Part shown: positions 1-61,972 of the stretch, piece after piece
Layout of the letters: each line of letters begins with the position of its first letter
How positions within the stretch are numbered: position 1 is the first letter of the stretch
Assembly: GCF_030684315.1 (NCBI RefSeq)
Contig: NC_081357.1
Span: forward strand, 39,189,786-39,253,785
Origin: Stegostoma tigrinum
Taxonomy: Eukaryota
DNA: 64,000 nt
Reading direction: 5' to 3'
Made by a program: the position numbers and the translations under genes
Notes under the pieces: model-generated
What the model was told of the DNA's origin: nothing
Databases searched by the model: none
The model's input: the letters and a program-made list of their open reading frames with translations, nothing else

Positions 1-335
1 GCACAGACAGCAAAATCAACATTACGTTTAAAATTTGAGAGGTCCATTCAGATGTCTAATAACAGCAGGGGAGAAGCTGTTCTTGAATTTATTTGTACAT
101 GTATACAAATTTTTATATCTACTGCCAAAAAAGAGGGTAGAAGAGAGTATAACCGGAGTGGGGCAGGTGGGGAGGGGGGGGGGGGTTCGGGGTAGTATTG
201 TAGGCAAGGCCAGCATTTACTGACCATCTCTAATTGGCTTTGGGAATGCGGTGGCAGGTCACCTTCTCACAGTACAGCCATTCACGTGGTGCAGATACAC
301 CCTCAGTACTTCAAATGGTTTGATGTAGATGAGTG

Positions 336-557
336 TGGAGCTGGATGAACACAGCAGGCCAAGCAGCATCTCAGGAGCACAAAAGCTGACGTTTCGGCCC
401 TAGACCCTTCATCAGAGAGGTCTCTGCTCTCTGATGAAGGGTCTAGGTCCGAAATGTCAGCTTTTGTGCTCCTGAGATGCTGCTTGGCCTGCTGTGTTCA
501 TCCAGCTCCACACTTTGTTATCTTGGATTCTCCAGCATCTGCAGTTCCCATTATCAC
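336..557 (+). mobile_element. Penelope-like (family A) fold-back mini-insertion with two inverted hammerhead cores
   Basis: Inverted arms at ~334-419 and ~427-512, plus a 3' tail ending gcagttcccattatcac. Flanked by the 15-bp direct repeat tgatgtagatgagtg (321-335, 558-572). Same terminal repeat as the GIY-YIG element at 40423-41496. Confidence 0.85.
431..458 (+). ncRNA. Minimal hammerhead ribozyme motif (a second copy lies on the - strand at 388-415)
   Basis: ctgatga-agggtctaggtcc-gaaa-tgtc matches CUGAUGA / stem II / GAAA / NUH, the arrangement known for Penelope pseudo-LTR hammerheads. Confidence 0.65.
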
Positions 558-727
558 TGATGTAGATGAGTGCCTTGCTAGACAATTTCAGAGAATGGTT
601 AACTCTGTGTCTGGCGCTACAAGTAGTTCAGGCTGACTAAGGATAGCAGGTTTATTCCCATGAAGGACATAGTTGAAATGGATAGATCTTTGTAACAATC
701 TGTTCAATGGTCTTGTTTATTTACCAG

Positions 728-1290
728 AGGAAAATAGAATATAAGCACAGGAGTAGGCCATTCATCCCTGCTCCAGCATCCAATATTATCGTGGATGATC
801 ATCCAGCTCAATGCCCTATTCTCATCCCCCGTTTCATTCAATACCTTTTGAACCCTTTAGCCTTAAGAACTGTATCTACATCTTTCTTGAAAACATGCAA
901 GAATTTTGGCTTCAACCACCTTCTGTGGCAGAGCATTCCACAGTCTCAAAGTTTCTGGGTGGCGAAATTTCTGCTGCTATCAATCTAGCTATTCTCATTT
1001 TTCCCACCTGTACTATGACCAACTGTAAGTAGTAATTTTTTTTGCCTTTCCTTTTCCTTTATTTCTGTATTTTGTACCTGAGATCTGTACAAGGTACTTT
1101 GTACTAAGATAGTACCATTTGGGGTGACATTGTAAACTTTTCACTTTACTCCTGTACTTGAATACATGTAACAATAAAGGATACTCTATTCTATTCATTT
1201 CTAAATAGCCTACCCCATATCATTAAACGGTGACACCTGATTCTGGACTCTTCAGTCAGTGGGATTGCCCTGACGGCATCTGTGAAGAGA
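728..1290 (-). mobile_element. Decayed CR1-type LINE 3' end
   Basis: aggagtaggccatt..., ttctgtggcagagcattcca and ctgattctggactc resemble the CR1 3' region at 3150-3460. Confidence 0.5.
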
Positions 1291-1493
1291 AACCAGAGTT
1301 AACATTTCAGGTCCGGTTACCCTTAATTAATCCCAATTGTTATGACTGAGTGGTGCATCATCAGGGCCCAGTATCAGTTGTTGCTGAGTGCCAGGACACA
1401 GTTATATCTCACTAAAAGACTAGACATCCAGGACTGCTTGAATCATGCATTTGTTAGAAATCACAGAGCTAAACAAAGCTTCATTATAGTATG

Positions 1494-1637
1494 AGACAAC
1501 AAGGTGTAGAGCTGGATGAATACAGCAGGCCAAACAGCATCAGAGGAGCAGATGCTGCTTGGCCTGCTGTGTTCATCCAGCTCTACACCTTGTTGTCTCA
1601 GATTCTCCAGCATCAGCACTTCCTACTCTCTTTACAC
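1494..1637 (+). mobile_element. Penelope-like (family A variant) fold-back mini-insertion
   Basis: Inverted arms gagacaacaaggtgtagagctggatgaa / ttcatccagctctacaccttgttgtctc plus tail. Direct repeat tatagtatg at 1485-1493 and 1638-1646. Confidence 0.75.
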
Positions 1638-1989
1638 TATAGTATGTCCCACAATCGAGCTGAAAAGGACCATATTAAGGGAGAACATCTTCCAGAACAT
1701 GGTCATTGCTACAGGATTATTAGTTTAAATACTGGAAGGCTTGTGTAAAAATGCTTTAGCTCACAATGTTATCATCTAGTATAATTTGAAGGAATACCTG
1801 AGACCTAATGGAATGAGAGTACAAGTAATGAATGTATTAATTAATAAATGGTTAATTGGATCAAAATTGGTTGAATAAATGTAGACAGTTATTAATAGAG
1901 GCAGGTAGGTGTTTTATGGAGTATGGTTAAATGAAAGAAAGGTCTCACAAAATCTACGGATTTGGACTTTGTTCAGATACAGTTATCTT

Positions 1990-5450: not shown

Positions 5451-5479
5451 GGATTATGTGATTCACTGGCTGGGTCAAT

Positions 5480-15670: not shown

Positions 15671-18379
15671 TCACAAATAACTTAAAATATAGTTAATTTT
15701 CCTACAAATTGTGACTGTGGGAGCTTATTTACAATAGTCTTTACATTTTTGAAAACTGAAACAGCCTTTTTATTGTTGGTTCCTATCCAAATTGGTGAGT
15801 TCCCATTTCTGATAAAATTTTCAAGCAGTTTAATTTCAACCAGGTTGTTCTTCTTTATATTCTACAAAAGAGGAACAGAATTTTTGGATTTTTGATATGT
15901 CTCTTTTTTTAAAGCAGAAGTAATTGCATGACAGCATTGAGTTTAAACCGTTTCCCCATCCATATCGAAACTAACTAAACTTTAAGGGTTGTATTAGACT
16001 AAGCATAGTATGCAACACTCACATATAATCATTCTTCAAACTGCTAAGCACTAGGTTAAAGGAACGGTCAGTAAGTCAAAATTAGATTTTAAACAAGCCT
16101 TCTTTTTCGGAAGAATAATAAATACTCAAAAGCATTCCAGTTTCTCAAACCTATCTGCTAAATGTGTAAAAGCATGAGGAAAATAAATTCTGAAAGATCA
16201 TTAAGTAAGATCTATTGGCATCAATCATAGGAGTATTTGCATTTTAGAATGCAACCTGCTAAATGTTTTTAATTGTGGAAAACCCCAATCAAAATGACCA
16301 AGAGTAAAATGAACAACAATTGATGAATTGAGAAGTATATGAAACAAATTTGTTTATTTTCTTCAAGACAAAGTCTGCCAGAGAATTACATTGTGCAGGC
16401 AGCAACTTGCATTCATATGGCGCCTTTAAATAGATAGAATAGTTACAAAGTACTTCACAGAAGCATAATCAAGTAAAATATTGAAATTACATTTGACTTT
16501 TCAAATATAAAATATTGGCATAAATCTACACATGTTCTATCAAGACAAGCATTGAGTCCACAACATTTGAAATAATGAACAGGAACAGTTTAAATACAAT
16601 ATCTTAATGATTGTAGTAATCCAAAGAGTATTTGAGTTTGAGTAGTAATTATTGAATAATCTAATAAATCCAGTAATTCCTTAGTTTGCAGCCGGAAAAA
16701 CAATCATGAGATAAAAAGAAAAGAAATGCATCCTAAATCATAACTTACATCCAAAAAGCATAAATGGTATTGATGTAGATATCTGAACCTACACTGTTTG
16801 CTTGTTAAGCCTGTCAAACCAGATTTGGAGTGTTAACATACAAAGCTTTCATAGCACTAATCTCCTCACTGAAAATAGACTGCTCTTAATATACTTATTG
16901 ATCCCGATCATACTACTCACCACTGTTTTGTTAGATCAGCTAAGTTCAACAATGAATTAAGCCATAGATTTAAATCAATAACAATGACTCTTTGATGATC
17001 CTTGTCCAAGTTGGCCTTTCAACTGGTCAAGTTCAAATAAAAACAGCCCTCACTACATTTCTCTATATGCTATTTTTACAATGGTACTAACCAACCAAAT
17101 TTAAAAGCCTCATTAAAATGGAATTTGGGCGAAGCACATTAAGCATTCAGAAGTCACATTTCAGAAAATACCCATTGACTTATTTGTATCCTGGTTTACA
17201 TAAAGAATTATGTCCTATTGTAAATGCTCCGTGATGCCCCGGGTTTGTTTCTCCTTCATCGTGACATCAATTGTCAATCTATAGTAAAAATGTGTGCACT
17301 TATTGTGAAAGTTTTCACAATTGAAAGATCATTTGATCCAAAAATCCATCAGTTCTGTCTTTTCTGCTTTCAGACAGTTGAGCACTGGGAAAGATGCAAA
17401 GGCCGAAGCATTCTGCAGGAGCCCAGCTATACAGTTAAATAGGGTAGTAGTGAGGGACCTGAAATATAGGGAAGTCTGGGATGGAGTTTATTGAGAGTTG
17501 CTTTTTGGAGCTAAGTATGTCGAGGGACAGAGCTTTTGGAGCAATTGGGAAAAGGATTTGGGAGCTCTTTGCAAGCGGGGAAGAGAGAGACTCGAAGTTG
17601 GGAGACCGACAAGTTGGCAAGATGCAGGTAATGATCAACAGAATGTAATTCCTGAGAACTGAGATTTACCCCATTAGAAACAGGTTGTGAAACCTCCGAC
17701 AGTAACGTTTTTGACACACAAGAAGCCAGAACGTGACCCTGAGGGGCAAAGTGGAAAAAGAGAGAGAAACCTCTGGAGACCAGAGAATGTGATCACCTGG
17801 AGTAAAGTTTGTCACTGCTAGGAGCAGAGAGTCACCCCTGGGAACACGGTGTAACCCCTGTCAAATACAGTTTGTGACTCTCTGGAACCTGAGAGACTCT
17901 GGGAACAGAAGTGTAGCTATCAAGGGCAAGAAGTCACTGAAGAAAGGACGTGGTTATAGGGCAAGAAGGAGAGTTGCAATGTAACATGTAACATCAAGAA
18001 AAGAAAACAGGAGAGTGGAGAGGTGGTGGAATGGGGGCAGCTTTGAGATAATATACATTAGAAAGACTGAAAAGTTATCAAGGTAAAGCAACCCCAAACT
18101 ATATTGGAAACTGAAATGCAGCCATATTGCTCAAGCATTTGCAAGGGACCACTTGGTTATTGTGAGGTGAAGACGATGAAAGATATTGGAAAATGGGAAG
18201 AATTAAATTCTGGGTAAGATACTGCATTTGTTTTTGAGTGCTTAATTCTAGTGTTTATTATTTGATCGATTTTTAAAAAAATTTTCTAAAGGGTGGGTCA
18301 GCTTCTCAAAGGAATTCAAAATATGCCTATGTTTCATTTTGTCATGAGCATCACAGGCAAAGTCAGCCTTTGTCACTCA

Positions 18380-18517
18380 GAGATAATGGGAACTGCAGAT
18401 GCTGGAGAATCCAAGATAACAAAGTGTGAAGCTGGATGAACACAGCAGGCCAAGCAGCGTCTCAGGAGCAAGATGCTGCTTGGCCTGCTGTGTTCATCCA
18501 GCTTCACACTTTGTTAT
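18380..18517 (-). mobile_element. Penelope-like family A fold-back mini-insertion
   Basis: Inverted arms with the tail on the left. 12-bp TSD ctttgtcactca (18368-18379, 18518-18529). Confidence 0.85.
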
Positions 18518-18550
18518 CTTTGTCACTCATTCCCACTTTCAGGGTTTTTA

Positions 18551-18778
18551 AAGATAATGAAATGTGAGGCTGGATGAACACAGCAGGCCCAGCAGCATCT
18601 CAGGAGCACAAAAGCTGATGTTTCGGGCCTAGACCCTCCCGAAACGTCAGAGGGTCTAGGCCGGAAACGTCAGCTTTTGTGCTCCTGAGATGCTGCTGGG
18701 CCTGCTGTGTTCATCCAGCCTCACATTTCATTATCTTGGATTCTCCAGCATCTGCAGTTCCCATTATCACTGATACAA
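18551..18778 (+). mobile_element. Penelope-like family A fold-back mini-insertion
   Basis: Near-perfect inverted arms of ~85 bp plus tail. TSD ttcagggttttt (18538-18549, 18779-18790). Confidence 0.85.
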
Positions 18779-19469
18779 TTCAGGGTTTTTTAATGTGTTT
18801 TTATGAATGGAAGTCTTTTCACGTACAGTGAAATAATTGTTTATGATTGATTGCATTTTCTCATGTACTACGTAACAGTCAGGATACAATTCGGATTAAC
18901 TTTACCAGGGTAAAATAAACAATACAAATTACAGTCATTGTCAGAAAGTAAGACGAAAGGACGGAGAAGTAAAATCTCTGCATGCTTACAACCCTCACAT
19001 CTTTACGCCAGAACACGTAAATTATGTTCCCATAATTCTGCCTGGCTGACAGTAAATACTGTCTGTGCAATAGCTCTTGTGTCTTTGTAAATGACTTCCT
19101 CAACTGTGCACCCACTTTCACGATTACCCAAAAACGCAACAGCTATTTTTTTTTCATCAAAATGAATAAGTGGTCATTTTCACCTTAGGATCAACTTGCC
19201 AAGTTTACACAATTTGTAGATGTACTCGGGAGGAGATCTTTTTTACTAAAGATATAATCTTTTACAAAGGTATAACTGACTTTTGTAATTAATATGGCAA
19301 CCGTGTGTTCTGTGCTGACCCATGTGTCCTGCACTCAATTGTACAAAGCTTGGTTCAAAATTATATGTAATTAAGGCATGTTGAAGTTAGTATTCTACAC
19401 ATCCACAATCTTTTCAGTAAAAATTTTAAACATTCTTCAAAGATTCCTCGGCAGTAGCTCCATAAATCA

Positions 19470-19703
19470 AATAAAAGCAAAATATTGCAGGTGCTGAAGA
19501 TTTAAAGTAAAAGTAGAAAGTGCTGGAGAAGTTCAGCAAGGTTGGCAGTAACGGTGGAGAGAGAAAAATAGAGTTAACACTTCGAGTCCAACATGACTGT
19601 GAAAGTTCGGGAAAGCGTTTTTAGATTTGAAACGTTAACTCGGTTTCTCTCTCCACAGATGCTGCCAGACCTGCTGAGTTTCTCTGGCATTCTCTGTCTT
19701 TGT
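19470..19703. mobile_element. Old Penelope-like family B fold-back just downstream of GJB7
   Basis: Diverged inverted arms ...gtggagagagaaaaatagagttaac / gttaactcggtttctctctccac... Confidence 0.65.
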
Positions 19704-20584: not shown

Positions 20585-20610
20585 GGCTCCTCAATAACTT
20601 GATGATGAAT

Positions 20611-22635: not shown

Positions 22636-22751
22636 TATTATTGTAGATCCTACATTTTAAAGAGATTAATATACAGTGGTTTAATTGAGAGTTCCAAACA
22701 AAAATGCAAATATATTTTTGATTTAGTCTAATATAGGATTCCTTAGTCAAG

Positions 22752-22900
22752 ATAATAAAGTGTGAAGTTGGATGAACACAGCAGGCCATCAGCATCTCAG
22801 GAGCTTTTGTGCTCCTGAGATGCTGCTTGGCCTGCTGTGTTCATCCAGCTTCACACTTTATTATCTTGGATTCTCCAGCATCTGCAGTTCCCATTATCCC
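22752..22900 (+). mobile_element. Penelope-like family A fold-back mini-insertion
   Basis: Inverted arms plus tail. 13-bp TSD ttccttagtcaag (22739-22751, 22901-22913). Confidence 0.85.
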
Positions 22901-24499
22901 TTCCTTAGTCAAGCTTGTTTTTTGTAAATTGATACTGCATTTTAAATTAATTAATTACACAGATGTATTTTGTTGTGGCTTATGATGGAAGTTGCTTTGC
23001 ATTGATAAATTTATACAGACTCTGTAAATAGAAAAAGCTGGTTTTGGTAGTCAAATTTTAATTCAATGCAGAGTTTGTTGACATAGGTCTGCAGCAATAT
23101 CAAGCAAATACATCATTCAATTTCATTGCATTCTCTTTTCATATGTTTCATTAATACACCCAAAGTCAAATCAGAGACAAATTACATCTTTCCCTACGAT
23201 GAATATTAAACATAAATGTTGAAGAATGAAATATTGAACATGCAATTTTTTAACCAGGCAGAATTGGCAAATTCTGTGTAAATCACCTCACTGTAACCAA
23301 GGAACTCCTTCATGATCAACAACATATTCAGTTGTTCTTTTTCCATCTAACACCTGCTTCATTCTGTCAGCAGTCGTGCTGTTGAATTTGTCAGTTTAAG
23401 ATCCCAGTAATTATACAACAATTGTTACTGCCATCGAAGCTCCAGGCTCCTGAGCAACCATGATCTGTCAGTAATATGATGAGTTTAGCTCATAAGCAAT
23501 TGTTTATGGTGTACAAATGTTTATCGTGGGTTTGTACAGCATTTCACTTGATAATTTGTGTCCTTGTTTAGGCTTAAATTTACTCTGCATTTAAGTTTAA
23601 TCAATAAAGTAAAATTTTAGTCTGGCTCCTGTCTAGTTTAGTGACATTACTGTTTTTTTTTCTGAGATGGTGATCAGGACTGTTCAAGGAGAGGACATCA
23701 GTAATGTGGAATTGGTCAGTCTCCCACATCTGCGTGCCAGCACCAGGTACCCGTGAGCTAGGAATAATACAAAAAATCTTTGTTGGTATGGAGAAGGTTC
23801 TAGAAGGCAGGAACATAGACACAGGAGGAAATAACCTCTACACCCTCCAGACTCACTTCATTTATCCCTAAGCATTTATTTTTCAATTCATTTGGCCAGC
23901 TCATCTCAGCTTTTGGCTTAAAAAAGGTCATCCCAGGATCAAATGCAAAGTGAGCTATGGGAGTGGTCAGGGTGGATTAGTGGCCAGATTGTGGGCACAT
24001 TGTGAGGGAGCTGTGCATTTTCTGTGGTCAGTCGTCATTGGTAGAATAGGAGCAATGGGTGTGTCAGTCCACATTAAACTAAGTGACCTATTAGTTTGAG
24101 TGAAACTTTATAACTATGCATTACAGTTGCAAGAAGATTACAGCTGAGATAATCTGCTCCTCAGTACAGACTAGAAGGCTGAGTACAATCATTACAACAA
24201 TCACCAACAACATCACCCAAGCCTGCCCATCCAAACAAAACAAAATACAGCAGATGGTGGAAATCTGAAGGAACTAAGTGAAAGCTCCAAACCAAGGAAT
24301 ATGCATGCACATCACTGTTAAAGTGTCATGTTGTGTGCAGTTAAGAAATAAAACAGACAATAAAATATGTCACTGCAATATTCATGCCATTGTCTTCTTT
24401 AGGGAATGGATAAATCACAAGCATTTAACCGAATGAATGAAATGCTTCTAGAGGCAACAGCAACAAACTCCAACATGGAAAAGGACAACCCACAAGGAC

Positions 24500-24600: not shown

Positions 24601-25669
24601 AGCCAAAAGGACTCTTGGTATCTTCCTGCGAGGCCCTTGTGGTAGAAACTACCACTCAAGGATTGGCCTCTTCAGCCAGCAGCAAAGGTGCAACCAAAAG
24701 GTGCATGTATATCATTATTCACAGGTGGAAGGATACCTGAATCACTGAAGTCGTTTGGAACCACTTGAACCAGCACTGACCAGTCTATTGCAACCAAATG
24801 TTGGGTGTTGTATAGGGTAAGCAGCCGATATAATTTTCTTGCTTTGTATGTTCCATCTATGCTTTACACAAATGTAATCGATTCTCCGAAGTTTTACTTT
24901 GTTAGGTATTCCCTCCTTGTCTGCATTCACAATGTCGGAATTTCAACATTGTTGCACTGAGCCCAGCTATAGTACTGTGAGGTTTTATGCCTTCCCATCG
25001 CCAACAATGAAGGGAGAGTAGGGAGCATGGAATAAGGGTAAAAATGGCATTTCATTTTTCTAGTTTCGAAGTTTTATTTTAAGGAGTGGATTTCCTTGAT
25101 CCTGTAATGTATACCATTATGTTGCCCTTGCGCCCTTTCTCAAAGAATTTTGTGTATCTTTTCATTGTGAAAACTGCTTGAGGGTTTGCTATTTTTACTC
25201 CACCTTTTTCCTCCTGTTTATTCAAATTCCACCTGATTGACTAGGCAGTTCCGTGTCAATAGTGTGTGGGGTTTTTATACCATGACGTGGATAATTGTAA
25301 GTCGGTTTGAACCTGAAATCCATTTCATAGACAGGGTGTGATTCATATTGGCCAAGAGGCATGGAATATTTATTAAACTTCTCTCTCAGAAGGTGGAGCC
25401 AGACAAACCCAAGCCATTGGAGATAAAACTCTGACCGTGTTGATTTGTGTGTCTCACCCAGCTGCAGGATGTATTTAGAAACAGCAATAAAGAAGAGTAT
25501 GTCTGGAAGCCCAGCTGAATTAGGGATGGTAAATTGGGAATCCCCGAAGCTCTGGTCAAAACCACCACTGGGAAGTCAGGCAGTGTCAGTGCAGGTAGGG
25601 GATTCCGAATGTGCCTCAAGATTGAGGTGCCATCATAAAAACACGAAAAGTAACTTAAAATACACTGTG

Positions 25670-25875
25670 ATAATGGGAACTGCAGATGCTGGAGAATCCA
25701 AGCTAACAAAGTGTGCAGCTGGATGAACACAGCAGGCCAAGCAGCATCTCAGGAGTGGGATCATCAGACCCTTCATCACCCTCTCAGATGAAGGGTCTAG
25801 GCCCAAAATGTCAGCTTTTGTGCTCCTGAGATGCTGCTTAGCCTGCTGTGTTCATCCAGCTCCACACTTTGTTAT
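25670..25875 (-). mobile_element. Penelope-like family A fold-back mini-insertion
   Basis: Inverted arms with the tail on the left. 16-bp TSD cttaaaataYactgtg (25654-25669, 25876-25891, 1 mismatch). Confidence 0.85.
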
Positions 25876-26652
25876 CTTAAAATATACTGTGGCCACCAAT
25901 GCCAATGTCATCAATGTGCGGGGAGAGCCCCTGTAACAGAGGGTTCTGAGGCTGTGGTGCCTGTGGCACTGCCACTCCGGGAGGAGTCAGGGGAAAATTA
26001 AAGGAGCCCTGAAGGTTCCCCTGTCTGCCATTGGTAGACCTGTAGGGTTTGGTCTTAGTGGGTCACCTGTCCACTGCCAGTACATTTCCTATGGCATTAT
26101 CAGTTTGTCCCTAAGTGGGTTCTTCATTGTTACAGTTTAACTACTTGCCGCTGCCAGGTCCCATTCTAGTCTCAGCAAAATTACCAGGTGGTGGGAACAT
26201 ATGGGGTGGAGGTTGGGAGACTAGGGGTGGAAGAATGTGGTGACAGCAAACTGACATCGACCTGTCTGATTTCTCTCTAGATCCTGTTCCTAACCTCATC
26301 TCACAGCTGCGATAGCTCCACCCAGAATTTCTGTTGCCTGCAGCTGGACACATTGACTTTATTAGCAGTGTAGTCGTCAAAGCAACAAGTCTGCTTTTAA
26401 CTTCTGCAAAATTAGATCGGTACAGGCTACTGAAAGAGGGGAAAGATGCCAGAGAAACAAAGACAATTTTACACATCTTTGGGACCAAGGATTTAAGTAA
26501 GATGCCAAGAAGCAAAATTAATGCTGGGCATTAGTGATTATAGTTATTTTTAACATTATTTATTGAGGAGGAGGTCATTATAATCCTATAAGTCTGTTTT
26601 TGTGTGATGTAGTGCTCTGCCACATATTCTTTCTACTGCTGCTGTTGGGATG

Positions 26653-35770: not shown

Positions 35771-35784
35771 TCTCTGGATTATTA

Positions 35785-35932
35785 TAACAAAATGTGGAGC
35801 TGGATGAACACAGCAGACCAAGCAGCATCTCAGGAGCATCTCAGGTGCTCCTGAGATGCTGCTTGGCCTGCTGTGTTCATCCAGCTCCATACTTTGTTAT
35901 CTTGGATTCTCCAGCATCTGCAGTTCCCATTA
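35785..35932 (+). mobile_element. Penelope-like family A fold-back mini-insertion
   Basis: Inverted arms plus tail. 14-bp TSD tctctggattatta (35771-35784, 35933-35946). Confidence 0.85.
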
Positions 35933-36885
35933 TCTCTGGATTATTAGTTAGTCTTAACACCATGAGACCATCACGCCTTGTCAACTTTAGTTTATTTAAA
36001 AAAGTAAAATTCATTGGAAGTATGAATTGGACATTGAAATGAAGTCCTTAAGAAGGGTAATACCTGAAACGGTGACTGATCCTTTCCTCCAGATGCTGCC
36101 TGGCCTGCTGTGTTCTTCCAGCCTCTTGTTTTCTTACCTTGTAACAAAGAAATTGATTTCTTACAGCTTACAAACTCAAAGCGGACGAACTGACAGGCAG
36201 ACTTGCAACATCGTATACCTGCCACACACAGAATCCTTAAGTGTAAACTCTCTTAAAGGCAATGTAAACGTATAATATCCCTTTCCTTTCCAAAAGAAAG
36301 TTTAATTGTTTCCAATAACAAGTCAGCCGAAAATAAAATGTAAACACTTTTCTAATCAACCTGCTCGGGAATATTATCATAAACCTCCAGAGCAGGTTGA
36401 GTTTGAACCTGGGCCTCCTGATTCAGAAGTAGGGACACTATCACTGTACCACAAGAACTCTTGATAAGTGCCTAAAATGTAAAGGTAATTTGCTGATACA
36501 TTCAGATTTTGGGATGGTGACTTCAGAGGAGTTGTCAAGGCTTTTGTTCGCATTTGTCATTCCTGAACATACTTATCATGGTGCAGCGCAGTCAAAATTT
36601 GTTCCAGATCCACTGACCGTTCCTCAAGCTGTAATTGAATGGCTCAAATTTGTTTGAATTTACTGCTCCTTAAGAACTGCCAGCTCATTTTGAAGCTTGT
36701 GGATTTACATCTTGTATTCTTTTAATCGCATCAGCGTTTTATCTTTCTATTGGTCCAGTACTTTTTTTCCTTCATAACTGCCTCTCATTACTATCCCGTC
36801 TCTTCAACTAATTTTTTTTCTTATTGTTTTCTTACAAGCTTGGTCCTCTTCCATTTGCCTCCACTTCAGTAATTGTTTAGCTTCC

Positions 36886-38760: not shown

Positions 38761-40523
38761 GTTGATAATAGTGGTTTAATTGCTTATGAGGGATTGATTA
38801 TCTCCCTTTAGTTATATTAGCCTATCTAAAACAGTAAAACATATTCCCAGTTATGAAGCAAATAGTACAGCAAACCAACTGATTTCTGTGATACACGCAT
38901 CTTGTAAAGCCATAACAGAATAAATGGCAAGCATAGTCACAACATTGTAAAAATTGAGTCCTTAAAGATGAATGCTCTTAAAGACATGGTACACGTACAT
39001 CACAGTTTGCTGCACAGTGCCATTGATTCTGTCTGAGGTTACCAGGCAAGCCTGAAGCCGCCACGCTCTGCCTCCCAGCCCCTTGCCAAATACCTCTGTG
39101 AGTTACGTTGCCTTACAATATGGAAAAGTGCCAAACAGATCAATAAGGATCCAGGTTTGATCCCTGGTTTGTGCTGAGTTAGCTAATCTGCCACAATGGA
39201 TCTCAGAACTCCTGGACTGAGGTGGGATTGGGGGGAAGATGGTAGTGGATTGTGAGGCATTAGATTTAGTCAGGTACCGTCTCTTGCTCTCCATCAACGA
39301 GGAAAAGAGAGGACTATGGACACTAAGTGAAGACAGGACTATGCTCCACATTGATAAAACACCTGCAGTCCCTGGATAGCTTTAAATATTAAGAGGGAGA
39401 CTGCTTGTTAAAGAACGTTGAAATGTCAGCATTCAATAACCAAGAGTTATGAGTGGATTATATTAGATTTAAAAACTAACTACAGTGTACGGTAGACTTT
39501 TTGTAGTTCGAATGCCTTCAAATTGAACCTAAAATTAACACTGAGTACTAACATCACTGACATTGTGAGATAAGTTCTGATGCTGCCCAATTCCCTTTTA
39601 TGAGATCACTACTGGGAAAGTATGGCATTAATTCCCCATTTGAATAATTCAATTCAAATCGTAAGTCAATTCAGTGTTGTACTTTTACTATTGCAGAACT
39701 GCATTACCAATTATTCAAACCACTTTTATCTGCCATTATTGTGTGAAATGTTACCCCAGAAATGATCAAAAATCATCAACTCTGTAAGGTAGCCAAAGGC
39801 ACACAAACGTTAAAGGTTTGCAAAAATGGCAATTGTCATGTTTTGTGTTTCCCTATTTTATTTACAGAATGTTAGTTTTACCATGTAATTAGTTGGAATC
39901 ACTATCAATGGATCTTGACTTGATGAAAACTTAAAATAAAACATGAATCAAATTTTCACTCTCTTTCCACATTATGACCTGAACGTTCGAAATATACTAT
40001 AACGCAAATAAGCTATCACACCTTAAGCTCCAATTAAACTATTCCTTTGAAATAAAACACACAAAAAGAGAGGATTTACCTTGTAACAGCTGACAGCACA
40101 ATCTTCTCCAGATTAACTCCTCTCTCAAGTTAATTATATAGACTGTAAAATGATTTTCTCTGTACATCAAGCAAACTGGAAGTGCTCAATACGTTCTGTT
40201 TCACTGCATATTGAAAGTGATTTCTGTTTGTTCTTCCCTCATTGTGATCTCAGCAGATGTAACCTGAGCTTGCACAGTTCCAGTTTGCCTGGATCCAATC
40301 CTTCAAACTGGAACCACCCATAGCTACCATGGTTTCTGTTTTTTGAAACATTGAACTACACAAGCAATAGATTCAGTCACACACGATAGACACCTTTCAA
40401 AAAAAAACTAGTTCAACTAATTCAGAGATAATGAGAACTGCAGATGCTAGAGAATCCAAGATAATAAAGTGTGAAGGTGGATGAACACAGCAGACCAAGC
40501 AGCATCTCAGGAGCACAAAAGCT

Positions 40524-40661
40524 GACGTTTCGGGCCTAGACCCTTCATCAGAGAGGGCGGAGAATCCAAGATAATAAAGTGTGAAGCTGGATGAACACAA
40601 CAGGCCAAGCAGCATCTCAGGGGCACAAAAGCTGACATTTCGGGCCTAGACCCTTCATCAG
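40524..40661 (-). ncRNA. Tandem pair of minimal hammerhead motifs (40524-40551, 40634-40661)
   Basis: The - strand has ctgatga-agggtctaggccc-gaaa-(c/t)gtc twice, 110 nt apart. Confidence 0.75.
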
Positions 40662-40873
40662 AGAGGGGGATGGGGGTGAGGGTTCTGGAATAAATAAGGA
40701 GAGGGGGGAGGCGGACCAAAGATGGAGAGAAAAGAAGATAGCTGGAGAGGTGGGGAGGGGATAGGTCAGTCCAGGGAAGATGGACAGGTCAAGGAGGTGG
40801 GATGAGGTTAGTAGGTAGGAGATGGAGGTGCGGCTTGGGGTGGGCGGAGGGGATGGGTGAGAGGAAGAACAGG

Positions 40874-41344
40874 TTAGGGAGGCAGAGACAGGCTGGACTG
40901 GTTTTGGGATGCAGTGGGTGCAGGGGAAGAGCTGGGCTGGTTGTGTGGTGCAGTGGGGGGAGGGGACGAACTGGGCTGGTTTTGGGATGCGGTGGGGGAA
41001 GGGGAGATTTTGAAGGAGGTGAAGTCCACATTGATACCATTGGGCTGCTGGGTTCCCAAGTGGAATATGAGTTGCTGTTCCTGCAACCTTCGGGTGGCAT
41101 CATTGTGGCACTGCAGGTGGCCCATGAGGGACATATCATCTAAAGAATGGGAGGGGGAGTGGAAATGGTTTGCGACTGGGAGGTGCAGTTGTTTATTGCG
41201 ATCCGAGCGGAGGTGTTCCGCAAAGCGGTCCCCAAGCCTCCGCTTGGTTTCCCCAATGTAGAGGAAGCCACACCGGGTACAATGGATGCAGTCTACCACA
41301 TTGGCAGATGTGCAGGTGAACCTCTGCTTAATATGGAAAGTCAT
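40874..41344 (-). pseudogene. Penelope-like GIY-YIG endonuclease domain (C-terminal fragment of the element ORF)
   Basis: FTCTSANVVDCIHCTRCGFLYIGETKRRLGDRFAEH..PVANHF..EQQLIFHLGTQQPNGINVDF. Confidence 0.88.
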
Positions 41345-44300
41345 CTTGGGGCCTGGGATAGGAGTGTGGGAGGAGGTGTGGGGGCAAGTGTAGCATTTCC
41401 TGTGGTTGCAGGGTCTTAGGCCCGAAACGTCAGCTTTTGTGGTCCTGAGATGCTGCTTGGCCTGCTGTGTTCATCCAGCTTCACACTTTATTATCTTAGT
41501 TCAACTAATTATTCTCCTGAAGATCTAATGTTGTCTCCCAATATTGATGACTCTTCCACTATTTTACGAAGCATCTGTTTTATTAAATGGGAATTATTCC
41601 AGCAGCTTTTGTTCCTGCTGCAATACCGCGAACCTTAGTAACTGTCCAGCTTGACGTATCTGTCTTGTGACAAGCAGCCCTCAAGTAAACCATGGTGTGA
41701 GGTATAAGGGCACATCTCAAGGTTACAGCACCCATCTTGAGAGCTATCTAGCCAGAAGGTGCTTCCTGCTTTCAAGCTCAGTGGGAAAATAACTTTAACA
41801 ACGACCTACCTTCTGGTGATGACTAGAGATCTGGTGTAAACAATGATGGACTGAATGACCTCCTGCTGTGCTGTAATGATGCTGCAATCCTGTGATTGCC
41901 ACCATCCCAACAACAGCTAACTGAAGCACGCCTGGCCCAATTCAGCACCAACAAGTCTTGACAACAAGTTCATGAGCAGTTATTAGGTCCTTTCTTAGCA
42001 GACAAGGGTTCAACATCAGTTGACCTTAGCTTGACCTCAGCTGGCCATGACAGCTGGAAATTGTGCATGGTCAGTATAGCTTTGGATTTACTTCAGGTGT
42101 CTTTGAGATGAGTGGCAATGTGAAATTTGTCATCCAGTCTCTATCCTTAAATGAACTAATGTTGTAACCCTCAGGCCATTAAAGCTGTTTGCAATGTTGT
42201 CTTCTGGCATGGTCCATTGGATAGTGATGAATTGTGAAAGCCAGCTTTGGTTTATTTGTATCCCAAAACAAGTGGCTATGTTGACCACCTAAGATAAGAT
42301 CAGCTAACTCAATAATTAAATTTGTGAATTTCTTAGTTTACATGGCTCAGCGTAAGCTCAGTTAAAGTATTTACCAATGATAGAGCTGTCAAGGAAAGCC
42401 ATATACGTATTTATTGAACAAAAATTTGAGTCAGTTCATATCTTAGCCTTTAATGATCTCAGTTTACAAGAATGAGTATGTCGCTCTTCTCTACTTACTT
42501 ATGAGAGTCTCTTTTCTATCCACTTGGTAAATAGAAAATAGGGTCAGAAGTAGGGTATGCAGCCCTTTAAAGCTGCCCTATCATTCAAGAAAATCACAAC
42601 TTGACCTTCTCTTTCATTTACTCAGATTTTATCCAGAAGATAGTAACTGGTCTTATTAACAGACACCAAGGATGGATGACCAAATCATCCATAAAAGAAT
42701 AAAGCCATAGCGCACAGAGCTGTGGGCCAAGTGCTGGAAATGGATTTAGTATAAGTAGATGAATGATGATCAGTGTGGATGTGATGGGTTGAATGGCCTC
42801 TTTCTATACTTTAAAAACTCTATGACACAAACAAATGCATGGCAGTGCCTGCTGGTCTGGGTGCATACCTGAGAATGGTACTTAGAGTCTGTCACACTGG
42901 TAAGGCTGAGCTCCTGATCTTGATGACAAAACTGTCACTGACATTCCATGGCAGAGTGTACTTCTAGCTTTTAGCCTCCCTCTGATTGTCATTTCGAGTA
43001 AAGTCAAAGTTAAGCTCCTTTATGACCTGCTTATTGTTTCACTAAGAATGCTTTAAAAAAAATTTATGATGCTGTTCACTTAGTGACCAGAATCCTTACG
43101 TTATGGTGCTGGATAAGAGTAATTACAATTATGATTTCAGTGAATGGCAAGTCTTTTCTGCATTAGATCACTCCTGGGAAGTATAAATCTCTAAGTTAAT
43201 CATTGTTACACACTCAGAGACAGGAGGCATTTTATTTCTTTATCATAGCAGCACAAATACTAGAAGAAGCGAATTTGATTGGAAGAAAGTAGAGGTCCTA
43301 TGGGACTTGTCAATCATTGGGCCACTTCATAAGTTCAGTAGTTCATGTTATTTGTGGTACACAGATCATGAGCTGACGGCAGACTCAATATCTATAACTA
43401 CAGTATGAAGATTACTGTACTTTAAATAGTTTACATGGGCAATTTTTTAAATAATTAATTCATTAACAAAATCAACTAGCTTAATTGGTAACAGACATAT
43501 GCAATGGATAAAGGTTCTCAGTTCCACTATATAAAATGGAAATATAAAAAGACAAAACTTCTTTTCATTGGCCCAATGACTCAAACGGGGTAATTCCCTT
43601 AGGCCAGCATTATTGACCACTTTAGGTGGGGTCCTTACTTTCTACCTGAAATTACCATTGAAATATAAAGTATCTCAAAAGTATGAGCAACAAATGAAGC
43701 TGTTACTATTCAGGAGCAACATTAACAGTTTGCTACTAACGGAATACTGCTGTCATACTAAAAAGACATGTCATTGAACATTATAAATTAATCCCACGGT
43801 CATGAAACATGAGAAATATAAAGCAAGCACCGCCTCAATTTGCAATCACATTCTAGCCTGCACAAGATCCAGTAGCTGTTCTCCTTTCATACTTTGGACT
43901 ACAAAATGCCTACACATTTATCCTCTATACAGTGCTATCTTTCTTGGGTGAAATGTGGGGTGATGGAGGGAAAGAAGTTCTCATTTTTGCTGCCACTCCT
44001 TCTGCATGTGTGCCAAGCAACTTGTGCCACGTACTACTGAATCAGGTCTACAATGTAAAAGGTCTATGTAAAGGCCTTCCATTGACCTCCTTGTTGGGGT
44101 GTCCATGTGCCAATGTTTGTGGGGCTGCGTGCTGTGACTGCTGAGTGATCAAATTATGAAGGATCTGCTTTATTTCTGATATTGCCCATAAAGACACTTT
44201 GGAACCATTCCCAATAGATCCAGGCACAGAAGTTGTTATTGTCTCTGTGTTTGCCATGCTATGAGCATCCACAGGAATTTGTAAGGAACACATACACCTG

Positions 44301-50833: not shown

Positions 50834-50876
50834 CCTTGTTATCTCCGATTCTCCAGCATCTGCAGTTCCTATTATC
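50834..50876 (+). mobile_element. Minimal Penelope-like family A tail-only insertion (~43 bp)
   Basis: ccttgttatctccgattctccagcatctgcagttcctattatc flanked by tcaaatata (50825-50833, 50877-50885). Confidence 0.7.
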
Positions 50877-51764
50877 TCAAATATAACTGCTCTTTGTTCA
50901 ATTCCAACACATCACTCTAAGAAACTTGAATGTATGCTAAGAACTCTTCTTCCAGGCTATTGCTGCCAATCTGATTGTTCAAGTTTATATGTAAAGTGTC
51001 TCATGATTATTGCCATCCCAACATTACATGTTCACAATATTTATTTTTCAATACTCTGTCCCAAATCACGTCCACTTGTCTCTTATGTTCCCTCCGATCC
51101 TACATTTCTACTCAAACTGATCGTACTTCTCAATCTTCTGAACCAATGTAATATCTATTAGACAAATGCCATCCTCTATTAAGTATGTTACCCCTCCACA
51201 TTTATCTAGCTTCCTATTTTTCCGGAGTGTCATGTACCCCTTTATATTCAGGACCCAATGTTCATCAACCTGCAGCCACGTCCCTGCATGGTTATCAGGT
51301 CATTTTTTTGCCTTCAATATGTGCTAGAAATTCAAGTACTTCATTCTGAATGCTTTGTTCTAAATCTGGTTGACTGGAAATTGAAGTTATTTGATAAAGA
51401 ATTAAGTATAGACCTTACACCACCCAACACAAAACAATTTAATGCAGGTTTTGTTTTTATGTAAAGAAATATGGAAGACAACATAGGATTGCAGTAACTG
51501 AAAAACAATTTTTTTGAAATACATTTCTTTAGAATTTGAAAGGAGAGATTGAGGTGAAAACTTTGATACGACAATTGAACCAAATGTTTGAACTTCACAT
51601 TGTAGGACTGCATGTAAACCAATGTCATGGTGTGGCAGGGGTGGGACAGACGAGCCTCAAGCTATTCAGCATCGGGAGCATTGGTAGCTCAATTTACGAC
51701 TAATTACATATGAAGGTGTACAGATCAACCTGAATGCTGCAGCAGAACCAAGATGACAGTAATG

Positions 51765-51975
51765 GAGATAATGGGAACTGCAGATGCTGGAGATTCCAAG
51801 ATAATAAAATGTGAGGCTGGATGAACACAGCAAGCCAAGCAGCATCTCAGGAGCACAAAAGCTGACGTTTCGGGCCGAGACCCTCTGATGAAGGGTCTAG
51901 GCCCGAAACGTCAGCTTTTGGGCTCCTGAGATGCTGCTTGGCCTGCTGTGTTCATCCAGCCTCACATTTTATTAT
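51765..51975 (-). mobile_element. Penelope-like family A fold-back mini-insertion with an intact hammerhead core
   Basis: Inverted arms. CTGATGA at 51885-51891 and GAAA-CGTC at 51905-51912 (+). 17-bp TSD ccaRgatgacagtaatg (51748-51764, 51976-51992). Confidence 0.87.
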
Positions 51976-52079
51976 CCAGGATGACAGTAATGTTGTGTTT
52001 CAGTGATTGTTCTGATAATGATAAAGAGGTTTGAGTAGCTTGGCTGCTATATTATGTTATGTCCTTTCATCACCATAAT

Positions 52080-54689: not shown

Positions 54690-54781
54690 TGAGATGCTGC
54701 TTGGCCTGCTGTGTTCATCCAGCCTCACATTTTATTATCTTGGAATTCTCCAGCATCTGCAGTTCCCATTATCTCTGATAC
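54690..54781 (+). mobile_element. Penelope-like family A short non-inverted insertion
   Basis: gagatgctgcttggcctg...cccattatctctgatac. TSD aagagagaagRgt (54677-54689, 54782-54794). Confidence 0.75.
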
Positions 54782-54890
54782 AAGAGAGAAGAGTAGTTGG
54801 ATAGATAAAGGAGTGGATAACAGCCTATCAATGGAGATAATTAGTGACTAACAACATGTGGTGTTTAATAGCAGACCATGTGATAACAAT

Positions 54891-55095
54891 AAGATGTGAG
54901 GTTGGATGAACATAGCAGACCCAGCAGCATCTCTTATTCATTTCTTATTCATTCACTTCTTCATATGTCTTTTAAACGTTGTAAACTGTGCCCTCAGCTT
55001 TTGTGCTCCTGAGATGCTGCTGGGCCTGCTGTGTTCATCCAGCCTCACATTTTATTATCTTGGATTCTCCAGCATCTGCAGTTCCCATTATCACT
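54891..55095 (+). mobile_element. Penelope-like family A fold-back with a foreign ~60-bp loop
   Basis: 14-bp TSD catgtgataacaat (54877-54890, 55096-55109). The loop at 54934-54993 is not element sequence. Confidence 0.8.
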
Positions 55096-57460: not shown

Positions 57461-57888
57461 TTATACTCAGTCCTCTCTGAGTCATTGTGTTAGAATGTAA
57501 ATAGCAGAAGCCCAAACAATGGTTGTTGTGGCACTTTGGTAATTATACTCTGCTACATTGAAAATGGCCTGTGAATTCCTGCTCTGTTTTCTGCCATTCA
57601 CCAACTCTCAAACCATCCTAATATTATTCTCCTGTCTAATGAGTCCCAATTTTGCATCATAACCTAATGTGATACCTTATCAAATACTTCACAAAAATCC
57701 AAACAACATCATAATCACTGCTTCCCCCTTATCTATCTTAGTTACATCCTCAAAAAAACTCAGCAGATTTGTCGACCAAATTTCTCTTCCACGTTGACCC
57801 ACAAAATAACTATGATTTTCTCAGTGTTTCCTTAATTCATCCTGAATAATAAATTGAACGATTTTCCTTATCACTGACGCCAAGCACC

Positions 57889-58352
57889 AGATTTTAAGAG
57901 ACTTAATGTACCTATGGATTTTGATGTGTCATTGTGCTTATCTTTCTGAGATATGCACTTTAGTATCCTCAATGTTAGATTTTAAGAAGTTTGATTGAAC
58001 GGAATGTTTTGCTGTTCAAGGTTGTTTATCTCACTGAGATATGCATTTTAGTATGATAAATATTAGATTTTAAGAAGTTTGATTGAATTGGATATTTTGC
58101 TGTTCAAGGTTGCTTTTCTCACTGAGATATGCACTTTAGTAAGACCCTCAGTAGATTTTAAGCAGTTTGATTGATTTGAATGCTTTGCTGTTCACGGTTG
58201 CTTTTCTCAATGAGGTATGCAGTTTAGTGTGATCTGCATCTGATTTTAAGAGATTTGATGGACTTAGTGATTTTGATGCACCAATGTGCTTATCTCACTG
58301 AGATGCACACTTCAGTACGATCAGCTTACTTCACTGAGATACACACTTCAGT
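57889..58352. repeat. 88-bp tandem repeat (~5 copies) inside a CR1 remnant
   Basis: (a)gattttaag recurs at 57889, 57977, 58065, 58153 and 58241 (exact 88-nt period). Each unit contains ctgagatatgcactttagt-like sequence. Confidence 0.9.
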
Positions 58353-59009: not shown

Positions 59010-59845
59010 ATAGAGGCCAACAGATAGAGCAAGGCCTTTGACCCATCGAGTCTGCACTGGTCACCTATTCTAATCCAATTCTGCTGCACCTGGCACACAG
59101 CCTTGTATGCCTTGTCATTTGCAAGTGCACATCTAAACGTTTAAATGTTATGAGGGTTTCTCCTCTATCACTCTTACAGGTTAGTGAGTTCCAGATTCCC
59201 ACCATCCTCTGGGTGAAAATGTTTTTTGTCACATCTCCTCTAAATCGTCTGTTCCTTCCCATCAATCTTTACTCCCGGTCACCCAATTCTTCCAGCAAGG
59301 CAAAAAGTTTCTGCCTCATAATTTTATACATCTCAATCATGTTGCCTCCACGACCCCCCTCAGTATCCTCTGAGCCAGTCTGTCCAATCTCTCTTCATAA
59401 CTAAAACTCTCCAGACCAGGCAACTCCTGGTAAATCTCCTCTGCATCCTCTCCAGTGATATCACATCCTTCCTCTAATGTCGATTCCAGAACTGAACAGA
59501 GTACTGTAGCTTTGGCTTAGCCAACGTTTTGTACAGTTGCAGCGTAACCTCCCCGCTCTTAAATTCTGTGCCTCAACTAATAAAGGCAAATATCTCTTGT
59601 GCTTTCTTAACCACTTTACCAAACCGTTCTGCAACCTTAAGGGACTGGTGTACATGTACACCAAGGTTCCTCAGCGCTTCCCAGGGTTCTACCACCTATT
59701 ATGTATTCCCTTGCATTGTTTGTCCTGCCCAAGCGCACCACCTGGACTTACCCAGACTGAATTCCATTTGCCACTGATCAGCCCATCGGTATCCTGTAAA
59801 CTAAGGCTATCACCCTTGCTGTTCACCACCCCTCATTCTTTTTAG
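59010..59845 (-). mobile_element. Decayed CR1 LINE 3' part
   Basis: RFRGDVTKNIFTQRMVGIWNSL and WQMEF-like remnants on the - strand. Confidence 0.75.
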
Positions 59846-60622
59846 ACAAAGTAATCAAGGGGTAGATGCAAATGTGAAATTCAAAATGCAAACAGATCTC
59901 ATTGACTGGCAGAGGAGGCTCAAGGGATGGTGCTGCTAACATTATTTATTACGGTTGATGGCAACACTTTTAATAGGAGACTCTAAGTGAAAGGTTGGTA
60001 CAGGAGAGTTTTGGCGTCTCTAATGGCAAAAGTTTCAGAATTTTACCAAGATGTTACCAAAGACCGTGTGCGTAATAATGTGTATTGCACATTATTATTA
60101 GCCAGTGCTTCAAATTGGAGATGACTTGATAACAGGACTATTGGTAGTTTTACCAACTGAACTGATGTATTCAGAGCTGCATAAAACATATATATCAGCA
60201 TGAAGCTGATAGGTTTCCACATATTTAAACGTCAAGTCATATGGAGATAATGCAGGAAAATAGTGCCGAAGTAGAAAACCAGCGTGTTCTCGGTGAATGG
60301 CAGTGCAGGTTTGAAGGGCTGAATGGCCTATTCCTGCCCCTGTTTCTGAACAGTCTCATATTCTTGCTGTAATGAATTTCTTAAACTAAAACTATCTACA
60401 CACAACAGCCACCAGAGGGAGTAAAAGTGCTAACTTCATGTTTAAAAGTCTTATTCAGAATGGAATGGGGCAACTGTCGGCAGATGTCGGAAGTCTTACT
60501 TAAAATGCAGAGAAAGGTTGAGAAGCTCAGGGTAGAAAACATGCATGGGGAGAGAAAAATGCAGCAAATATTTCATGGATTTTATTCCTCCACAGGAGTT
60601 TCCCAACCTGCTGAATATTTCC

Positions 60623-60733
60623 TGAGATAATAGGAACTGCAGATGCTGCAGAATCTGAGATAACAAGGTGTAGAGCTGGATGAACACAGCCGGCCAAGCA
60701 GCACCAGAGAAGCAGGAAAGCTGACGTTTCGGG
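60623..60733 (-). mobile_element. Penelope-like family A variant short insertion, truncated inside the hammerhead
   Basis: 16-bp TSD cctgctgaataYttcc (60607-60622, 60734-60749). Ends at gctgacgtttcggg. Confidence 0.8.
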
Positions 60734-61464
60734 CCTGCTGAATACTTCCAGTGTTTTTGCTTATTATGAAGAACAGAATTGGCACTGAATGGAAAACAGC
60801 TCACCAGCAGAAATAGCTTTAGCCCATTGGGTAATTTCAAAAACTCAGTTGGCGTTCGCTCCTGCTCTTAACTCCCCTCCTTTTTCTCTCCCTCACAGAC
60901 TCACCTCAATCTTTTGAAAGGAAAATCCTCCTCAACAAATCTATTAATTTTTGAGGGAGTATCTGGCAGGGCAGATAAGAAGAGTTTGCATTGAGATTTT
61001 CAGCAGGCATTTGATAAAGTGTCAAGTGAAGTAATATACAGTAGTGGCATGGATTGAGATGTTGGCAAACAGGAACAAAACGGAGCCGGAATAAATGGGT
61101 CATTTGCAGGATAGAAGACTGCAATTGTTGGGCTGTCAGCTATTTACAATCTATATCAACGATTAACTGACCCAAAATAAGGCACAAAATTGGCTGAGGG
61201 ATCAGAAGCAGATTTTTTGGGGGCGGGGGAGCTAGAAGAAAGTTTGTAGTGGACCTTCAGGAATCAGTATTGGACCTTTTGCTTTTCTTCATGTTATTGA
61301 TCGAGATCTTGAGGATCTCATTGAAAGGTACAATTCCAAAGTTTGTGGATGGCACAAGACTTGGGAGAATTGTAAACAGTGAGGAGAATGATTTATTGAC
61401 ATCAAAAGGACATTGACACATTGGCGGAGTGGGTGAATAGATGGCAAGTGAAGTTCAATACATA

Positions 61465-61823
61465 GTGGAGGCAATGGCCTAGTGGAATTATAACTAGACT
61501 GCTAATCTAGAGATGCAGATAGCGTTCAGGGGACCTGGGTTCAAAATCCTGCCATGGCAGATGGTGGAATTTAATTCAATTTTAAATATCTGTAATTAAG
61601 AATCTAATGATGGCCGTGAATCCATTGTCAATTGTTGGAAAGATCATCTGGTTCACTGATGTCCTTTAGGGAAGGAAACTGCCATCCTTACCTGATCTGG
61701 TCTACATGTGACTCCAGACCCATAGCAATGTGGTTGATTCTGAACTGCCCTCTGGGAAATTAGGGATGGTCAATAAGTGCTGCCTAGCCAGTGATGCCCA
61801 CATCCTGTTCATGAATTTTAAAG
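61465..61823 (+). mobile_element. tRNA-derived SINE with a LINE-like 3' tail
   Basis: A-box tggcctagtgg and B-box gggttcaaaatcc. The tail gctgcctagccagtgatgcccacatcc resembles the LINE end at ~63260-63310. Confidence 0.75.
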
Positions 61824-61844
61824 ACAGTGTGAAAGTATTATGGA

Positions 61845-61972
61845 CACAGTAGGAACTGCCAATGCTGAAGAATCTGAGAGAACAGGATGTAGACCTGGAT
61901 GAACACAGCAGGCCAAGCAGCATCAGAGGAGCAGGAAAGCTGATGTTTTGTGTTGAGACCCTTCTTCAGAAA
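61845..61972 (-). mobile_element. Older Penelope-like family A variant terminal repeat
   Basis: ggaactgccaatgctgaagaatctgag...ctggatgaacacagcaggccaagcagcatc...gacccttcttcag. Confidence 0.7.

Follow-up and report, generated by a model that had tools for sequence, protein, structure and literature searches.

Hairpin stubs in a genomic stretch of Stegostoma tigrinum as probable insertion products of an endonuclease-bearing Penelope-like element

Inverted copies, one-sided tails and minimal hammerheads are already published features of Penelope-like elements (PLEs). Parts of three papers call the PLE tail optional or often one-sided (PMC8557442, PMC3846280, PMC2377424), and the formation of tandem and inverted ends with such a tail is described as undefined in sections of PMC8557442. 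For a PLE of the anole, parts of PMC11167929 report two reverse transcriptase (RT) start sites bracketing the tail, extension of both strands, a predicted dimer, and a hammerhead that is dispensable in vitro. We analyzed a 64,000-nucleotide (nt) stretch of the Stegostoma tigrinum genome (contig NC_081357.1, positions 39,189,786 to 39,253,785; hereafter the window), in which short head-to-head insertions, or hairpins, are built from the terminal repeat of such an element, its pseudo-long terminal repeat (pLTR). Judged from their sequences, the hairpins are probably dead-end insertion products of an autonomous PLE that encodes its own endonuclease (EN+ PLE), formed by dual priming on one RNA.

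A complete copy of the parent element (locus L140) comprises an inverted arm with a short end, a tandem that is partial, an open reading frame (ORF) and a tailed 3′ end, flanked by a 14-bp target site duplication (TSD). The intact ORF of 1073 aa begins at +167, counting the C of CTGATGA as +1, and joins a PLE-type RT to a C-terminal GIY-YIG endonuclease (EN), the arrangement that defines an EN+ PLE. It carries DKG, YIDD, CX4CxxC and CCHH-type GIY-YIG motifs; in the EN domain CIHCTRC stands ahead of YIG with histidines downstream, and the linker that joins RT to EN, CNRRKCYTC, fits CX2-5CxxC. Pfam matches to RVT_1 (E 1.8e-5) and GIY-YIG (E 0.0018) both lie under the curated cut-offs, the best Atlas matches are RT/GIY-YIG clusters (0.97), and a PDB sequence search with the RT-EN region returned no match. 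The architecture of L140 is also that of an EN+ PLE, with its pLTR in partial tandem, an inverted truncated copy and a 30-40-nt tail. By the motif definitions in the relevant sections of PMC8557442, the parent, as predicted from its protein, is a C-terminal EN+ PLE of Neptune type, with the clade read from the linker motif alone; according to the same sections, the CX2-5CxxC linker also occurs in Nematis.

An earlier note, made from the letters of the window, had listed 13 short insertions together with a repeat-bounded GIY-YIG fragment, and had tied them to a PLE whose pLTR holds a minimal hammerhead. BLAST of the repeat against the window recovered every one of them in place (Table 1), and the tie to a PLE is supported. 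The GIY-YIG frame is real and its element has its own TSD; the frame matches Pfam GIY-YIG with E 0.0067 (17.1 bits, under the 22.6 cut-off), and 150 of 150 scored genomic candidates are close copies of the endonuclease fragment at 92-100%, the 233,680 first-look candidates being a loose figure. Nine of the 13 are head-to-head copies, as had been claimed, and 12 have their own TSD, with perfect matches of 9-15 bp or up to 19 bp with 1-2 mismatches. The TSD finder, which gave 4 hits in 150 random position pairs, found none for the copy at 61852, the sole one of the 13. With TSDs of 8-18 bp and asymmetric ends, these are indeed independent retrotransposed insertions and not miniature inverted-repeat transposable elements (MITEs). 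The hairpins are not symmetric: all ten two-armed insertions of the window, the GIY-YIG element at 40424 among them, have one end near +129 and the other near +93.

The abundance of the family was assessed in a random sample of 60 evenly spaced 10-kb genome stretches, where it covers 48,604 of 599,800 bases (8.1%). A recognizable 3′ end was present in 96 clusters, and 7 of these lying within 60 nt of a locus edge were dropped. The remaining 89 insertions comprise 25 two-armed short, 36 one-armed short, 12 two-armed long and 16 one-armed long copies, 20 of the 89 reaching the ORF; extrapolation gives roughly 5 x 10^5 insertions of all ages. Sequence past the tail was present in 3 of 61 stretches only. 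The note had proposed hairpins as the dominant product, which they are not by count, although they make up 23 of the 45 random-sample insertions with a TSD. Hairpins are about three times denser in the window (9 in 64 kb) than in the random sample (25 in 600 kb). Arm lengths run unbroken from about 30 nt to full length, and because the counts grade from short copies into ORF-bearing ones, the stubs form the short end of a PLE length continuum. They are the smallest remnants of a common PLE, not a new element or a separate non-autonomous family.

The 3′ ends of the arms fall into two classes, short (S, about +90 to +95) and long or tailed (L, about +126 to +134), whose spacing of about 36 nt matches the 30-40-nt PLE tail. 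Two-armed insertions were counted when both outer ends are repeat ends, and exactly one L end was found in 43 of 45 from the window and random sample and in 72 of 75 from all loci (p 3e-11 for this one-tail rule against a 50:50 expectation). Six additional inverted loci (L125, L133, L140, L141, L143 and L147) have one L and one S end each. Both S and L appear to be primary start sites, since one-armed copies flanked by TSDs use either (12 S, 7 L); judged by gap size, 17 of these 19 leave room for at most 4 nt of a hidden partner arm. The 64 perfect TSDs measure 8-18 bp (median 13), and a strong AT-rich target bias is absent (A+T 0.605, comparison value 0.578). Folding of one repeat with its tail gave no more stability than shuffled sequence (z -0.01), so no RNA structure is claimed at the start sites. 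An older PLE-end family, family B, with a 4-bp helix I hammerhead, was observed at window positions 19467-19705, 10045, 22497, 31747, 36884 and 54487; the family described so far is referred to below as family A.

The two arms of one insertion resemble each other more closely than arms of different insertions do (4.5% versus 7.9% difference in 35 young pairs; pairs under 88% identity were dropped from the 67). At five diagnostic sites the arms have the same allele in 30/31, 33/34, 31/34, 30/33 and 32/34 cases (permutation p < 0.001 each), whereas at two mutable sites they agree in just 14/25 each. This contrast speaks for one shared template and against homogenization at a later time. Arm length is coupled as well: of 41 unbiased pairs, 39 combine arms of the same class, long or short (p 3e-6), as do 63 of all 67. 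Junctions in the 67 hairpins consist of overlaps (29), blunt joints (2), fillers of 1-15 nt (27) or longer fillers (9). None is identical to another, and 4 of the 2211 possible pairs are similar.

In the Drosophila element, an internal promoter lies within the pLTR, according to parts of PMC2377424. To locate the 5′ ends here, a histogram was compiled that omits the search-target arms of L002-L030, and the stop was tested on young arms, excluding a pile at position 0 in older subfamilies that upstream divergence could produce. Among 66 young arms from unbiased sets, 25 begin at -6..+15, one at -28..-7 and none at -50..-29; in a larger set the figures are 40 at -6..+9 against 2 at -30..-7. This stop of the short arms is sharp and lies about 3 nt upstream of the hammerhead, while long copies align straight through it. 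Locus L134 starts at -3 and runs on into the ORF start, and in the tandem step of 40424-40667 the repeat begins anew at -5. We infer from these data an RNA 5′ end near -3. A splice acceptor at about -23 was ruled out as the cause of the stop, since the arms end at -5..-1, and a mismatch in the reference copy accounts in part for a further peak of arm starts at +46. What we take to be a pyrimidine-rich TCT-type initiator fits position -3 by eye, the fit being weak inside a pyrimidine tract. In L140 (356-1300) the inverted S arm begins at -367 and the partial tandem upstream of the ORF has its start at -359, though the tailed arm is one whole unit longer; perhaps both ran to one RNA end.

Starting from the common origin, variable TSDs, two end sites, one-tail rule, arm coupling and 5′ stop, we propose the following course of events. 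The GIY-YIG/RT protein would make a staggered cut in the target (median 13 bp), and each 3′-OH would prime reverse transcription. Where both do so, one cDNA would start at L and the other at S within the same repeat of the same RNA, as expected for a dimer holding a single RNA, and the two cDNAs would be joined head to head by end-joining, with microhomology or filler. Use of the first repeat of the transcript would end synthesis of both cDNAs by run-off where the RNA begins, near -3, and yield a hairpin of 110-230 bp, while use of a downstream repeat of a tandem transcript would yield long arms. Dual priming of this kind fits the anole element, with its start sites bracketing the tail, extension of both strands, predicted dimer and dispensable hammerhead (parts of PMC11167929).

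Several observations weigh against dual priming. Service of both sites by one RNA requires strand displacement, which is assumed, and the allele sharing could equally stem from two RNAs of one active locus. In the 18 long-long pairs the truncation points show no significant correlation (rho 0.32, p 0.20). The one-tail rule has exceptions, with no L end in two insertions (both among the 45) and two L ends in one of the 75, which has no TSD. Family B obeys it less strictly: of its 20 pairs, 15 combine a long with a short end, 3 are long-long and 2 have no long end, by a length cut-off set after the histogram had been viewed. The stop at -3 may be an RT block instead of a transcription start. Finally, young arms start in excess at +27..+33, around the predicted hammerhead cut (9/14 versus 7/24 expected, p 0.007 post hoc; 13/33 at all ages, p 0.14).

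The second arm could also have been made from the same parent by self-priming, which seems unlikely to us; the cDNA or antisense RNA would snap back, trimming by EN would leave the one-sided tail, and apex deletions would make the arms unequal. Self-priming has already been published for inverted Penelope structures (parts of PMC3846280), and the tail has been presented as an EN-mediated resolution (parts of PMC8557442). It accounts for the shared alleles and length class, and for 14 of the 67 pairs in which the two arm starts are no more than 5 nt apart. However, self-priming requires an S arm contained within the tailed one, whereas in 27 of the 67 pairs it is the S arm that extends further 5′, in four of them by over 1 kb; the L arm does so in 26. 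With S the primary end in 12 of 19 one-armed copies, it further predicts many pairs without L, whereas 2 of 45 were observed (Fisher p 1e-6). It is kept as the main rival of dual priming because later apex deletions could rescue both failed predictions.

Hammerheads of the minimal type are a known PLE trait, and the motif CTGATGA...GAAA-CGTC, pointed out in the earlier note, is present in the repeat. By sequence criteria it is a real minimal type I hammerhead with a predicted cut at +28/+29. The descriptor gave 53 matches in 664 kb and 0-1 in five shuffles, and helix I has at least 2 bp in 48 of the 53 although this was not demanded. Covariation, read from the parsed descriptor motifs, includes helix exchanges between families (T-A/A-T and C-G/T-A); core identity between families A and B is 11/11 against 57/88 elsewhere (p 0.016), while core and remainder do not differ significantly within family A (p 0.09). 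An Rfam scan of the window found no hammerhead family among 17 matches at E <= 5, and its microRNA (miRNA) matches, under their gathering scores, were rejected as hairpin artefacts. A third hammerhead family, with a 6-bp helix II, a 3-5-bp helix I and an extra T or C after the core, was observed at L076, L097, L102, L110, L120 and L127.

The description of the insertions as hammerhead-bearing stands for a minority only, the core being intact in 17 of 61 short random-sample copies and in 2 of 14 short window clusters, one of these 14 being a weak 53-nt match at 36092. Of the two origins suggested in the note, an abortive integration product agrees with dual priming, whereas a non-autonomous family of hammerhead-processed RNAs amplified in trans is very improbable and already largely refuted. 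A genuine hammerhead, the slight excess of young 5′ ends at +27..+33, the four similar junction pairs and the existence of non-autonomous derivatives in this genome speak for such a family. Against it stand the continuous arm lengths, the lack of identical junctions and the low share of intact cores, as well as the starts of the arms themselves: at least 97 of 155 short arms begin upstream of +27, past the predicted cut, and 4 of 155 exactly at +29. The hairpin fold is very stable (-184.8 kcal/mol for the 334-560 copy, z -21.9, with 0 of 200 shuffles equally stable), and forcing the hammerhead fold within a hairpin costs about 45 kcal/mol. Furthermore, the stubs are without the ORF-start region needed for activity of the anole PLE (parts of PMC11167929). 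Cutting by the hammerhead was rejected as the origin of most short arms, since these extend upstream of the cut, although the small excess of young starts suggests that a minority of templates may be hammerhead-cut. The hammerhead does not define the stubs and appears to be inherited cargo, dispensable for their formation.

The true non-autonomous derivative consists of tandem arrays elsewhere in the genome, located by a search with post-tail sequence; the persistence of sequence to at least +235 in every array reflects a bias of this query and was not used. Their units of 300-440 nt unite the ORF start with the 3′ untranslated region (UTR). Locus L141 (G000:C11:34441027-34447296) has a 315-nt unit with 0-2 differences per unit and 16 forward plus 4 inverted hammerhead motifs, and the array with its inverted arm has one L and one S end inside one 14-bp TSD. 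The same -83/+236 junction occurs on three contigs (L141, L142 and L143), whereas L125 (6756-8434), L133 and L144-L147 each have their own; the L133 unit (+39..+392) is without a hammerhead core. TSDs were found at 8 of 10 such loci, L140 included. As tandem non-coding hammerhead units repeated at dispersed loci, L141-L143 conform to non-LTR retrozymes, and the window hairpins do not, being inverted and single, with 12 of 14 short clusters lacking an intact core. L141-L143 thus look like a retrozyme-like lineage inserted with PLE ends. The arrays suggest insertion as multimers, though they may instead have expanded locally afterwards.

The proposal that the hairpins are MITEs of a DNA transposon with captured PLE ends agrees with their shape, short size and high copy number but can be dismissed as extremely improbable, given TSDs of variable length, ends unequal by about 36 nt, variable and truncated centers, and a continuum into RT-bearing copies.

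The insertions of the window are summarized in Table 1. A weak one-armed relative with a degraded hammerhead-like start was additionally seen at 36040-36144 and is missing from the earlier list.

Table 1. Family A insertions and associated features in the window (L, tailed end near +129; S, short end near +93)
Feature	Position	Strand	Arms and ends	TSD and remarks
Two-armed stub	334..558		left arm S (minus, -4..+82), right arm L (plus, -3..+129)	15-bp TSD, 321-335 / 558-572
Predicted minimal type I hammerhead core, left arm of 334..558	388..415	-		one stem II change
Predicted minimal type I hammerhead core, right arm of 334..558	431..458	+		
Two-armed stub, older subfamily (82%)	1494..1631		S left, L right	TSD 9 bp perfect, 12 with one mismatch; no hammerhead
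Two-armed stub	18379..18520		L left (+37..+129), S right (+46..+94)	12-bp TSD; no hammerhead
Two-armed stub	18551..18771		S left, L right, both arms from +8	12-bp TSD; 13-nt filler
Two-armed stub	22748..22901		S left (+38), L right from +29	13-bp TSD; 3-nt microhomology
Two-armed stub	25669..25878		L left (+39), S right (-10, core mutated)	TSD 9 bp perfect, 19 with two mismatches
Two-armed stub	35784..35937		S left, L right (+37/+36)	14-bp TSD
Longer two-armed insertion	40424..41497	-	L end at 40424	14-bp TSD, 40409-40422 / 41497-41510
Partial tandem in 40424..41497			-5..+129, then -763..+104	110-nt
Inverted arm of 40424..41497	41407-41497		S, spans +5..+94	
PLE ORF 3′ fragment, 5′-truncated	41012..41407	-		CX4CxxC linker, GIY-YIG endonuclease with CCHH
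Predicted minimal hammerhead core, intact, outer tandem copy	40524..40551	-		
Predicted minimal hammerhead core, inner copy at 3′ UTR end	40634..40661	-		
One-armed stub	50836..50878	+	L (+85..+128)	9-bp TSD
Two-armed stub	51765..51976		L left (+8), S right (-1)	13-bp TSD
Predicted hammerhead core, intact, in 51765..51976	51885-51912	+		
One-armed stub	54690..54776	+	L (+43..+129)	10-bp TSD
Two-armed stub	54888..55095		S left (+46), L right (+27)	14-bp TSD; 62-nt filler
One-armed stub, older subfamily	60624..60736	-	L (+15..+128)	TSD 11 bp perfect, 16 with one mismatch
One-armed older copy (79%)	61852..61970	-	L	no TSD found; core degraded

Other features of the window include an open single-exon connexin ORF at 19826-20590 on the minus strand (Pfam Connexin, E 8e-83). 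Beyond the 3′ end of this ORF follow a family B hairpin, at about 120 nt, and two stubs, at about 1 kb, so all three may fall in the connexin 3′ UTR. At 57888-58323 lies an 88-bp tandem repeat of about 4.4-5 copies with 78% matches. Other RT-bearing LINEs have left fragments at 3366-4112, 12207-14309, 27348-28519 and 46326-46877, of which one has an open frame of 700 aa; by eye they look CR1-like.

This repeat family is as such ordinary, but at about 8% of the sampled DNA it matters for annotation, and its stubs, resembling MITEs or, through weak Rfam matches, miRNA precursors, would be misfiled. The main value is mechanistic: a single tail in 43 of 45 pairs, a shared template and a sharp 5′ stop give predictions that can be tested in the in vitro system already established for a PLE. 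The inverted arrays bounded by TSDs are relevant to the question of whether retrozymes of animals retrotranspose as multimers or expand in place. A more far-reaching version of dual priming seems to us evenly balanced between right and wrong: one dimer would prime both strands from one and the same RNA, invariably using the tail site for one strand and the site 36 nt upstream for the other, the strong-stop stubs would map the transcript start at about -3, and retrozyme arrays would be inserted by the same machinery as ready multimers from circular or concatemeric RNA. If this is true, some 10^5 hairpins are a natural record of how PLEs form inverted ends, the self-priming model is replaced, and the arrays are direct evidence of PLE proteins mobilizing retrozymes.

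In twin priming of LINE-1, a second nick primes a second cDNA, which leaves an inversion inside the TSD and microhomology at the joint; the pieces have no sequence in common, and the position of the second start is random. In the hairpins described here, by contrast, both arms span one stretch of sequence, and their starts lie at two fixed sites.

Among described PLEs, Neptune-type EN+ elements are closest, as far as the sections of PMC8557442, PMC3846280 and PMC2377424 go. They have a single ORF with RT and C-terminal GIY-YIG, CCHH and a CX2-5CxxC linker, heavy 5′ truncation, partial tandems, an adjoining inverted truncated copy, a 30-40-nt tail at one end and variable TSDs; what differs in S. 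tigrinum is the share of about 8% of the sampled DNA and the large proportion of doubly truncated stubs. Within the literature searched in part, with Repbase, Dfam and older primary papers outside its reach, the one-tail rule, the arm coupling and the -3 stop were not found stated.

Poseidon PAc of the green anole is alike in its two RT start sites, which bracket the tail downstream of a dispensable hammerhead at the pLTR-ORF junction (parts of PMC11167929). It belongs to another clade, Poseidon being without the linker Zn finger (sections of PMC8557442); unlike it, the element described here has its ATG after the tail and shows none of the strong AT-rich target bias of PAc (parts of PMC11167929). 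Inverted insertions are not addressed in the parts of that paper considered here, and the word "inverted" was unmatched in its supplements.

Minimal PLE hammerheads as described in parts of PMC4209133 share with ours the type I core, an extra nucleotide that separates position 9 from 10.1, the G10.1-C11.1 pair and a palindromic 2-nt helix III, and occur both as dispersed single motifs and as dual motifs 100-700 bp apart on opposite strands. The helix II of 4 bp and helix I of only 2 bp in family A are as in D. virilis; low activity is reported for the type, and the same parts do not name cartilaginous fish among its hosts (PMC4209133).

Non-LTR retrozymes, according to parts of PMC7229834 and of a preprint (bioRxiv 10.64898/2026.07.22.740005), resemble the 300-440-nt units of L125 and L141-L147 in being pLTR-derived non-coding tandems with a hammerhead and TSDs, and differ from the window hairpins, which are not tandem and mostly without the core. 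The preprint, in the parts considered, favors local expansion after insertion, whereas the arrays of S. tigrinum, with inverted arms and one L plus one S end inside one TSD, point to insertion of a multimer.

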